This document shows, piece after piece, positions 36,001 through 39,000 of a stretch of 39,533 bases of DNA. The first letter of the stretch is position 1; every line of letters begins with the position of its first letter. Location of the stretch: positions 1-39,533 of the IMG/VR virus record IMGVR_UViG_2547132281_000008, one strand, 5' to 3'. This DNA comes from a virus. Lineage: Duplodnaviria; Heunggongvirae; Uroviricota; Caudoviricetes. The position numbers are program-made.

Positions 36001-39000
36001 GTAATTTCAGAAATGTATTTCAAGGATATGTATGCTAATAGCAAGATGGTGTATCTTGGTGAAATATCATTTTCCGTATATCTTATCCATCCATTATTAT
36101 TTATTTTAGTTAACTCATATCATCCTTTTATTGATGTATTTAACAGCCTTTCGGGATTTACAAGGCTTTCATGTCTTGTTGCTTTTGTGGTTTGTATATC
36201 ACATATTGTATATCGACTAATTGAACTACCAACTCATAATCTTGGTAAGAAATTGGCAAAAAAATACTTCTCGCACAATATGAAGGAAAATAAAGACTGT
36301 CACAGTTAATATAATGAGATACCTTTTACCATTCAGGTAAATTGTAAAAGTAAATGAAAGGTAACTATTAACCATATGTGGTTTGTTGTGTATGATTAAC
36401 ACCCACAACTAAGGGGGTGATTATGCACAGTAAACGGTGGTTGCTATGTCAATTCAGCTAACCAATGAGTCTTTAAATCAGTGGCTTAGTGTTGGTTCTC
36501 TTACTGCGGTAATCGCAGGTGTCCCGCCAGAAGTAGCTCTCGGTTCTCTGGCGGGTGCGGTAATTTTTGTTACCTCAGCAGTCGAATATCCGATCCGCCG
36601 CCGAGTATTCCTGTCGATGCTAAGCTTTCTTTGCGGCCTTCTTTTTTACAAACCAGCAGCATCAATTCTTATCGGCATAGCCAGCCTGATCCCTACCATC
36701 ACACAGGACTCTTTTGAGAAAGGGATTGTTTTTTCTGCTGGCGCATTCGTGTCAGCAATTGTCGCTGTGCGTATTGGTATATGGCTCTATCACCGCTCTG
36801 ATAATCCACGCGAGTTAATGCCGGGGAGAAAAGACGATGGTAACACATGAGTATTTTTTGCTTATCACCAATGCAGTTATTTGTACTGGCATAGCAATTC
36901 GCGTTGTCACATTTCGGCGTAACGGATCTCAACATCGAAGATGGGGTGGTTGGCTTGCTTATTTCCTGATTGTTGCTGCGGCCAGTATTCCAGTTCGTGC
37001 TGTCTATGCAATCTGGCTACGCATGCCAATGGCTGTGGATTTATCTGAGGTCATTATCAACGCTGTCATGCTTGCTGCGGTTATTAAAACGCGCGGTAAC
37101 GTCGTTCAGATTTTCAAAATAATGAGGTCTAAACATGGAGATTAAACAATTCCAGCGAGCTGCTGGTATTAGCGAGACGCTGGCCGCTCGTTGGTTCTCG
37201 CATATAACTTCTGCGATGAAAGAGTTTGGTATCAGCAAAGCAGAAGAGCAGGCAATGTTTATTGCTCAGGTCGGGCATGAGTCTGGGGGCTTCACTAGGT
37301 TGCAGGAGAATTTCAACTACAGCGTCACAGGACTGGCTAACTTCGTTCGGGCTGGGCGTCTCACTCAGGGACAGGCCAACGCATTGGGGCGACGCGCAGG
37401 AGAACCACCATTGCCATTCGAGCGCCAGCGAGCGATCGCCAATCTGGTGTACAGCAAACGCATGGGGAACAATGCCCCTGATGATGGATGGAATTACCGA
37501 GGGCGCGGACTTATCCAGATTACCGGTTTGAATAACTATCGTGATTGCGGAAACGGTCTGAAGGTTGACCTGCTGGAGAGCCCTGAACTGCTGGCGCAGG
37601 ACGAATATGCGGCTCGTAGTGCGGCGTGGTTCTTCGCCAGCAAAGGATGCATGAAGTATACCGGAGATATTGCACGTGTAACTCTGCTTATCAATGGTGG
37701 CCGGAACGGCATTGATGACCGGCGCGCGCGATACATCACTGCCAGTAAGGTGCTGGCGGTATGATCTGGGCATTCGCAAAAGCATACTGGAAACAGTTGG
37801 TTATCATGGCGATGCTTGCTGTTCTGGTCATATCAGGAGTTGTAGCCTGGAATGCACACGGCAGTCGTCAGTACGATGCCGGGTATGCGCAGGCGAAGGA
37901 AGACCGCAAAGCTGAAGATGAGATAGTTCGTCAGCACTACGAACAGGAGAAATCGATCAATGAACGTGAAGCGCAGCAGAGGATCGACCAGGCGCGCAAT
38001 GATGCTCTTGATGCTGCCGCTCGCGCTGGCCGGTTGCAGCAACAGCTCGTTGCCATCCATGAGCAGCTCAGGCACTATAACGCCATTGTCGGCGCTGGGT
38101 CGTCAGCCGCAGACACCGGAGTTTTGCTTGCCGACGTGTTCAGCAAATCTCTCGAGAGAAATAGACAACTGGCAGAGTATGCTGACCGGGCAGCCGAAGC
38201 CGGAAGAGTCTGCGAAAAACAGTACGACACCCTGACCAGATAGCATGGCATTTTTCATGGTACTGATTTCCGGTGACGGTATATAAAACGGTACGAGAAA
38301 AATTCATCTTTGGAAAAATGTTATCACTCAATTGGTTATGGTATCCGTAAATAATTGAGTGGGAATGATTTTGATCCCTGCACTATGAATGAACAAAACC
38401 CTCTGTTACTACAGAGGGTTTTTTATCTTCAAGAATCATAGGCTTGAAGTTACTAACATCGATTAATTAAACCAGCTGTCCGATTTGTTCTCTTCTGCTT
38501 TGCCCACGCTTTTCATCAGATCGCGACCGCCTTCAGTCATATTTCTGTTGGCGTCAGCTTCAGATTGCACCACATCGGTTTGCGCAGCTTTGTGCTTCAG
38601 TTCCTGATCGATAAATTCGTTTTCTCGCTTAACGCGGGCTTCTTCTTTCGCCAGCGCCAGTTTTTGTTTCTGAATCTCTAAGCTGCGTAGCTCATCTTCA
38701 TAACTTTGATCGCGTTTTTTGTCCGCAGAGGCTTCGGCGTCCAGTTTATCCTGACGAGCTTTCTTATTTGCTGCTGCCGTTGCCGCTCTTTTGTTAGCGG
38801 CGGCCTGGGCATTTGCGCGACGTTGCTTCTCTTGCTGGATTTCCCTGTTGCGCTCCGCGACCCATTCGTCATGCTGCTTTTGCTCTTCATTTTTACCTTG
38901 CTGTTCCGCTTCTGCGACAGCCGAGAGTTGATCCTGCAATGATGAGGCGATAGCCGGATAGCTTAAGGAGGCCAAGATGGCGCAAAGAAAAACTTTCTTC

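Follow-up and report, generated by a model that had tools for sequence, protein, structure and literature searches.

Insertion of an epsilon15/phiV10-type prophage at the 3' end of Escherichia coli guaA: the attR junction in IMG/VR record IMGVR_UViG_2547132281_000008

Where does the prophage on the virus record IMGVR_UViG_2547132281_000008 give way to bacterial DNA, and which host sequence did it enter? Phage genes are found across this 39,533-nt stretch (henceforth the window, whose numbering we use throughout; L-numbers designate comparison loci in other genomes), and towards its right end a gene-free gap of 219 bp (38244-38462) lies between the stop codon of the last phage gene, Rz (38243), and a minus-strand open reading frame (ORF) of 179 amino acids (aa) ending at 38463. 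An earlier note on this DNA had placed both borders of the gap correctly and had predicted that the gap contains the right attachment site, attR, of a prophage whose target may not be a tRNA gene. This prediction is essentially right: positions 38244-38462 are the attR of an epsilon15/phiV10-type prophage inserted in the last codons of Escherichia coli guaA. The gap is made up of three parts:

38244-38353, plus strand: phage P arm of attR, phage-only DNA from the Rz stop to the core, found in free phages but missing from empty-site genomes
38354-38370, plus strand: att core ATTGAGTGGGAATGATT, consisting of the guaA codons I-E-W-E and TGA (38354-38368) followed by TT, defined by comparison of attB, attP, attL and attR
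38371-38462, plus strand: host B' arm, guaA-yfgI intergenic DNA, also present in K-12 and, from 38354 on, 100% identical to empty-site E. coli

The core emerged from a four-way comparison, in which K-12 supplied attB, phage phiV10 attP, E. coli strain MLI109 (with an integrase 99.9% identical to that of the window) attL, and the window attR; the 17-mer ATTGAGTGGGAATGATT is common to all four, the attL seen in MLI109 included. E. coli genomes with an empty site, the uninterrupted host locus that had been proposed as a check, align to the window from 38354 rightward, some of them at 100% identity, while free phage genomes align to it up to 38370. The 17-bp overlap between the two matches is therefore the core, and phage DNA ends at 38353, or at 38370 if the core is counted. 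Empty sites, free phages and lysogens together put attR inside the gap, with its core at 38354-38370.

The K-12 guaA gene ends in ...ATTGAGTGGGAATGA, which encodes I-E-W-E and the stop codon, and the core thus exists in a host free of the prophage. Since the core is coding sequence of guaA's 3' end and ARAGORN detects no tRNA in the gap, the suspicion of a target other than a tRNA gene is borne out. Some integrases of the P4 family target tRNA or tmRNA genes, P4 itself at leuX and Sf6 at argW. The accompanying remark that such a target would be atypical of a P4-type integrase holds in general, but not for the genus Uetakevirus, where it is the published norm (PMC9782041), nor for the genomic island GIsul2 (PMC9376610). 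The window core exactly matches attgagtgggaatgatt, the guaA 3' terminus that has been described as the attP core in phiV10, epsilon15 and vB_EcoP_ZX5 (PMC9782041, citing Perry 2009 and Kropinski 2007); integration of vB_EcoP_ZX5 at this place was verified by polymerase chain reaction and Sanger sequencing (PMC9782041), and TL-2011b, too, was reported to insert in guaA (PMC3293862). Among 5426 complete E. coli genomes, 549 contain the integrase and at least 452 the attR junction. Insertion at the guaA 3' end is already known as a published and common integration site, and the attR of the window is correct but ordinary.

To the right of the junction stand two genes:

38463-39002, minus strand: yfgI (DUF5384; Pfam E 1e-61), host gene, named yfgI in E. 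coli RefSeq annotation
39018-39533, minus strand: yfgH, host gene for a glycine-zipper outer-membrane lipoprotein, from Pfam and E. coli annotation

Both genes directly adjoin guaA in K-12, where guaA and yfgI are convergent and about 90 bp apart, and in more than 4900 prophage-free genomes, so that the flank is chromosomal, as had been surmised. The core is present in a single copy in the window, with none to the right of 38370. The outcome that would have overturned the prediction, an attR further right with yfgI and yfgH as phage cargo, gains no support from the tests of host synteny and core copy number, is refuted by both, and has virtually no chance of being true.

The left attachment site lies beyond the window, which begins exactly at the GTG start codon of the integrase gene (int):

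1-1251, plus strand: tyrosine integrase of the P4/arm-binding type at the prophage's left end, with Pfam domains Arm-DNA-bind_3, Phage_int_M and Phage_integrase

This integrase is 99.9% identical to integrases beside guaA in E. coli lysogens. Within the genome of strain CEA601S, a related prophage is bounded at both ends by ATTGAGTGGGAATGATT as an exact direct repeat (L012:13249-13265 and 41946-41962). The attP of phiV10 has the order Rz, core, terminator and int, with the P4-like integrase about 190 bp from the core. The attL of the prophage in the window is expected to read guaA ...ACC ATT GAG TGG GAA TGA TT, AACAGCTAACTCATAGC..., the terminator AACCCTCTGTTTTT(A/G)CAGAGGGTTTTT, GTGACGGTAT and int. 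The tyrosine integrase would have recombined the attP core ATTGAGTGGGAATGATT with the identical end of guaA (the last four codons, the stop codon and TT). Because the two are identical, guaA stays intact at attL and a non-coding duplicate of its end is left at 38354-38370.

The strong bidirectional terminator that had been noticed in the gap is confirmed, and its origin is the host guaA/yfgI region, not the phage:

38395-38422, bidirectional: host intrinsic terminator of the convergent guaA and yfgI genes, 12 pairs flanked by an A-run and a T-run

For both strands its hairpin is predicted to fold at about -18 kcal/mol (z -5.4 and -6.0), and it is unchanged in the K-12 attB. In the lysogen this host terminator now stands behind the phage lysis genes. 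Behind guaA stands instead a terminator that the phage supplies in its P' arm, AACCCTCTGTTTTT(A/G)CAGAGGGTTTTT (L003:1877-1903, on the attL side beyond the window); it agrees with the host terminator (window 38397-38423) at 25 of 27 positions. The phage thus replaces the terminator of guaA along with its last codons and insulates int from guaBA read-through, and the likeness suggests that attP was derived from a longer captured guaA 3' region.

A further question is where within the core the strands are exchanged. Tyrosine recombinases of the lambda Int family need sequence identity in the overlap and act on sites with spacers of 6-8 bp. We propose the following site:

38347-38373, plus strand: candidate recombination site, with half-site C, GTAAATAATT, at 38347-38356, overlap GAGTGGG at 38357-38363 and half-site B', AATGATTTTG, at 38364-38373

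In eight attPs the corresponding arrangement, GTAAATAATT-GAGTGGG-AATGATTNAC, has arms complementary at 7-9 of 10 positions about a 7-bp spacer. Among inverted repeats with spacers of 6-8 bp the terminator hairpin alone outscores it, in all eight; leaving this hairpin aside, the arrangement ranks outright first in two attPs and ties with one to four other configurations in the remaining six. The stretch GTAAATA is invariant, although guaA imposes no constraint on it. Junctions in other genera narrow the position: in Klebsiella, whose guaA ends GAGTAA, host sequence in attR begins straight after ATTGAGTGGGA, and in Citrobacter, Kluyvera and Scandinavium, where the guaA stop codon is TAA, it begins straight after ATTGAGTGGGAAT. 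These switches place the exchange within the first 11-13 bases of the core, and the crossover inside ATTGAGTGGGA(AT). For GIsul2 the integration site is GAGTGGGA, within the guaA 3' end (PMC9376610). Taking together the half-site scores, the invariance of GTAAATA, the junctions in other genera and the GIsul2 site, we propose a 7-bp overlap, so that strand exchange would occur in GAGTGGG (38357-38363) between the imperfect inverted half-sites GTAAATAATT and AATGATTNAC.

Two junctions have other forms. After GAGTGGGA, the attR of K. pneumoniae ATCC 13883 (L014) continues with AATCCCC, 2 nt shorter than in the ST512 Klebsiella (GAGTGGGAGTAATCCCC), and that of Pseudocitrobacter faecalis (L028) continues with AATTATTCC; guaA-remnant decay, host polymorphism or imprecise exchange could account for these forms.

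The integrase carries a Pfam match to PF13356 (E 4e-20), as belongs to a lambda-type attP architecture, and a short motif recurs where such an architecture would have its arm-type sites:

38272-38293, plus strand: invariant block GGTGACGGTATATAAAACGGTA, comprising the putative arm-type motif GTGACGGTAT at 38273-38282 and another ACGGTA unit at 38288-38293
170-179 (plus strand), 260-269 (plus strand) and 513-522 (minus strand): exact copies of GTGACGGTAT within the int ORF

The block GGTGACGGTATATAAAACGGTA is invariant in 10 phages and prophages from four host genera, and in the RefSeq record of epsilon15 the 10-mer GTGACGGTAT is a protein_bind feature labelled 'integrase'. Upstream of int in MLI109, the P' arm holds a direct copy (L003:1957) and an inverted copy (L003:1987). 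Within the window GTGACGGTAT occurs exactly four times, against roughly 0.08 expected by our own estimate, and every copy lies at int or att. Over the first 300 nt of int, only 28% of third-codon positions are invariant across nine phages, yet the first internal copy is fully invariant and the second is exact in eight of the nine; epsilon15 RefSeq flags two of the copies as 'integrase' binding sites. In the int of GIsul2, searched for covariation evidence, no equivalent copies of its own arm motif were found within the ORF. The GTGACGGTAT repeats are probably arm-type integrase sites, and the N-terminal arm-binding domain would bind them at 38273-38282 in the P arm and also in the P' arm.

This leaves the 9-bp inverted repeat, which had been described in the gap exactly as we find it, with a 19-bp spacer:

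38325-38333, plus strand: left arm CACTCAATT, in the phage P arm, within the IHF-like motif (for integration host factor) ACTCAATTGGTTA at 38326-38338
38353-38361, plus strand: right arm AATTGAGTG, one phage base and the first eight core bases, within an IHF-like motif at 38348-38360 on the minus strand

This repeat should not be equated with the att core, which overlaps its right arm alone, by 8 nt. An inverted repeat beside att superficially resembles a pair of core-type integrase sites with the crossover in the 19-bp spacer, but that spacer (38334-38352) is phage-only DNA without a counterpart in attB, tyrosine recombinases require overlap identity and a spacer of 6-8 bp, and all junctions place the exchange within ATTGAGTGGGA(AT), so this reading is refuted and deserves almost no credence.

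What, then, is the repeat? A repeat search shows it to be the centre of a longer imperfect palindrome, with 28-nt arms that are 71% complementary and 3 nt between them. Each repeat arm lies within a 13-mer, ACTCAATTNNTTA, that agrees with the IHF consensus WATCAANNNNTTR in 12 of its 13 bases; the two 13-mers are inverted with respect to each other, and the epsilon15 RefSeq record annotates IHF sites over stretches homologous to both arms. The two inverted IHF-like motifs would form the palindrome, one of them overlapping the left part of the core. We consider the palindrome most likely to be an accessory element that serves bending or binding in the intasome.

The conservation of the palindrome was assessed in 18 attP or attR relatives from Escherichia, Salmonella, Klebsiella, Enterobacter, Citrobacter, Kluyvera, Scandinavium, Pseudocitrobacter and a Ca. 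Erwinia contig. As an extended hairpin (38325-38363) it has an outer stem of 11 pairs and an inner stem of 5-6 pairs (TTAYG/YGTAA), at -17 to -18 kcal/mol. This shape is predicted in all 18 relatives, 95% of the cells are paired and the loop is the most variable stretch. The palindrome also lies directly downstream of Rz on the coding strand, and its plus-strand RNA folds at -18 kcal/mol (z -5.3), against -11.6 for the minus strand, the difference being due to G-U pairs; all this would suit an RNA hairpin closing the late (lysis) transcript at its 3' end, either a stabiliser or a ribonuclease processing site, in place of a protein site on the DNA. However, covariation in the 18 relatives does not rise above shuffles (131 of 500 reach the observed score), a test that is uninformative since guaA and the invariant GTAAATA hold the 3' arm constant; in 11 of the 18 relatives the central bases do not pair, no T-run follows the hairpin, and DNA-binding sites account for the conservation equally well. 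We regard an RNA role as improbable. Somewhat better odds, though still poor ones, go to the notion that the GTGACGGTAT copies inside int (within its first 522 bp, with synonymous sites frozen across genera) and the 39-bp palindrome over the left half of the core may together form an undescribed integrase autoregulatory or directionality device.

Of greater weight, if on the whole doubtful, is the explanation that the 9-bp repeat has no function of its own: the core taken from guaA and a conserved motif of the P arm, each under separate constraint, would be complementary by chance. Shuffling the 219 bp yields a perfect inverted repeat of at least 9 bp with a spacer of 3-60 bp in 5-7% of cases, and shuffling the phage arm and core alone does so in 2-5%, which puts the repeat only marginally beyond chance. 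The repeat is perfect in six of the 18 relatives and confined in this form to the E. coli phiV10 clade and Tyrion; in 11 of the 18 the central pair is broken, the left arm being CAGTCAATT (a match at 8 of 9 positions), and in epsilon15 six of nine positions match. Yet the complementarity extends well past 9 bp, the high share of paired cells holds across several genera, and the TCAAT of the left arm is invariant.

The preferred explanation as a whole, then, joins recombination at the guaA core with the proposed overlap, the arm sites and the IHF-like palindrome. Besides the shuffles and the broken central pair, several points weigh against it: the attL of this particular prophage is outside the window, so that the direct repeat is seen in close relatives only; the position of the overlap and all binding by integrase and IHF are read from sequence; and matches to a relaxed IHF pattern show no enrichment in the window (5 found, 7.8 expected). 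We nonetheless hold the explanation to be very probably correct.

How does this attachment site compare with known systems? Relative to the published att of Uetakevirus we see no essential difference, and the window adds one more lysogen. Its 17-bp core is identical to that of phiV10, epsilon15 and vB_EcoP_ZX5 and has the same position relative to Rz and int; the phiV10 P arm is 95% identical to that of the window; and Uetakevirus phages share the same GTGACGGTAT and the same integrase type, with IHF-like motifs that match the epsilon15 RefSeq annotation. The lysis cassette and gap are 90-93% identical to those of the E. coli Uetakevirus phages TL-2011b, phiv142-3, vB_EcoP_ZX5 and phiV10, and 82% identical to those of epsilon15. 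The cargo (tailspike and acyltransferase) differs at the level of strains: the acyltransferase is on the plus strand in the window, whereas the phiV10 O-acetyltransferase is on the minus strand. With lambda att the site shares, at the level of predicted binding, an arm-binding N-terminal domain, arm motifs in both arms, IHF-like motifs beside the core and inverted half-sites around a 7-bp spacer. Unlike in lambda, the target is the end of a coding gene, and int is transcribed away from attP; with attP upstream of int, sib-type retroregulation is impossible. The P4-family tRNA integrases have the same family, the same domain layout and the same principle of a replacement 3' end, but here the target is protein-coding and no tRNA fragment is found at att.

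GIsul2 offers a comparison outside the phages. It uses the same gene end, its 8-bp site GAGTGGGA lies inside the window core, and its integrase is homologous to that of the window (53.8% identity over 95% of the length). Left of the crossover, its GTTTACAAT(C/A)GAGTGGGA is similar to the phage GTAAATAATTGAGTGGGA. GIsul2 is, however, a non-phage island with alpA, repA/repC, trbJKL, ars, resG and ISCR2-sul2, whereas the window carries phage genes throughout; this gene content was seen only in plasmid R16a. Its arm motif also differs (CATGGTAT-like) and is missing from inside its int. In R16a (L029:15650-16003, 27828-27890 and 31120-31180) the junctions of GIsul2 are GTTTACAAT(C/A)GAGTGGGA and GGGGGAATGATTCC, and they resemble the phage GTAAATAATTGAGTGGGAATGATT, so that related integrases appear to recognise related cores with different arm motifs.

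The rest of the window adds some features of its own:

37761-38243, plus strand: Rz-like i-spanin, the last phage gene (Pfam DUF2514, PF10721, E 1e-41; phiV10 homologues are annotated as Rz-like spanins)
37960-38235, inside the Rz gene: embedded Rz1-like ORF
15420-15496, minus strand: tRNA-Arg(tct), the only tRNA that ARAGORN finds in the window, near the terminase and portal genes and also annotated in the MLI109 prophage
32850-36309: low-GC region (30-40% against about 50% elsewhere) covering a 765-aa tailspike-like ORF and a 367-aa Acyl_transf_3 protein (plus strand)

The 765-aa tailspike-like ORF has no match in Pfam. The low-GC region is probably a swapped module for serotype conversion and receptor recognition.

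Related elements turned up in other genomes. The guaA prophage of E. coli MLI109 carries a multiresistance region of about 24 kb in its replication protein P gene (L003:9751-33789), with ISEcp1-blaCTX-M-15, blaOXA-1, aac(6')-Ib-cr, aac(3)-IIe, tet(A), IS26 copies and pemIK. Two circular PLSDB entries of 41,027 bp from duck E. coli, NZ_CP079771.1 and NZ_CP079768.1, encode integrases 98.6% identical to that of the window and probably represent Uetakevirus genomes, excised or episomal, that were entered as plasmids. A contig of Ca. Erwinia dacicola (L015, 2643 bp) shows the attP form, in which the core is followed on its right by the phage P' arm; in this insect-symbiont assembly the Uetakevirus-like phage is thus either unintegrated or collapsed by assembly. 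Matches to the 18-mer of a contig scan in unrelated phyla, such as those in Bacillaceae and Nostoc, were taken as chance and ignored.

The right boundary of the prophage is thus fixed to the base, the flanking genes are identified as host genes, and guaA is intact in lysogens. The value of this lies mainly in correct annotation, and the frequency of the attR junction helps to delimit mobile elements. Should the device proposed for int and the palindrome be real, the attP of Uetakevirus would exceed a simple core in both size and structure. The guaA 3' end is a landing site common to at least two types of element with related integrases, the Uetakevirus prophages and GIsul2.

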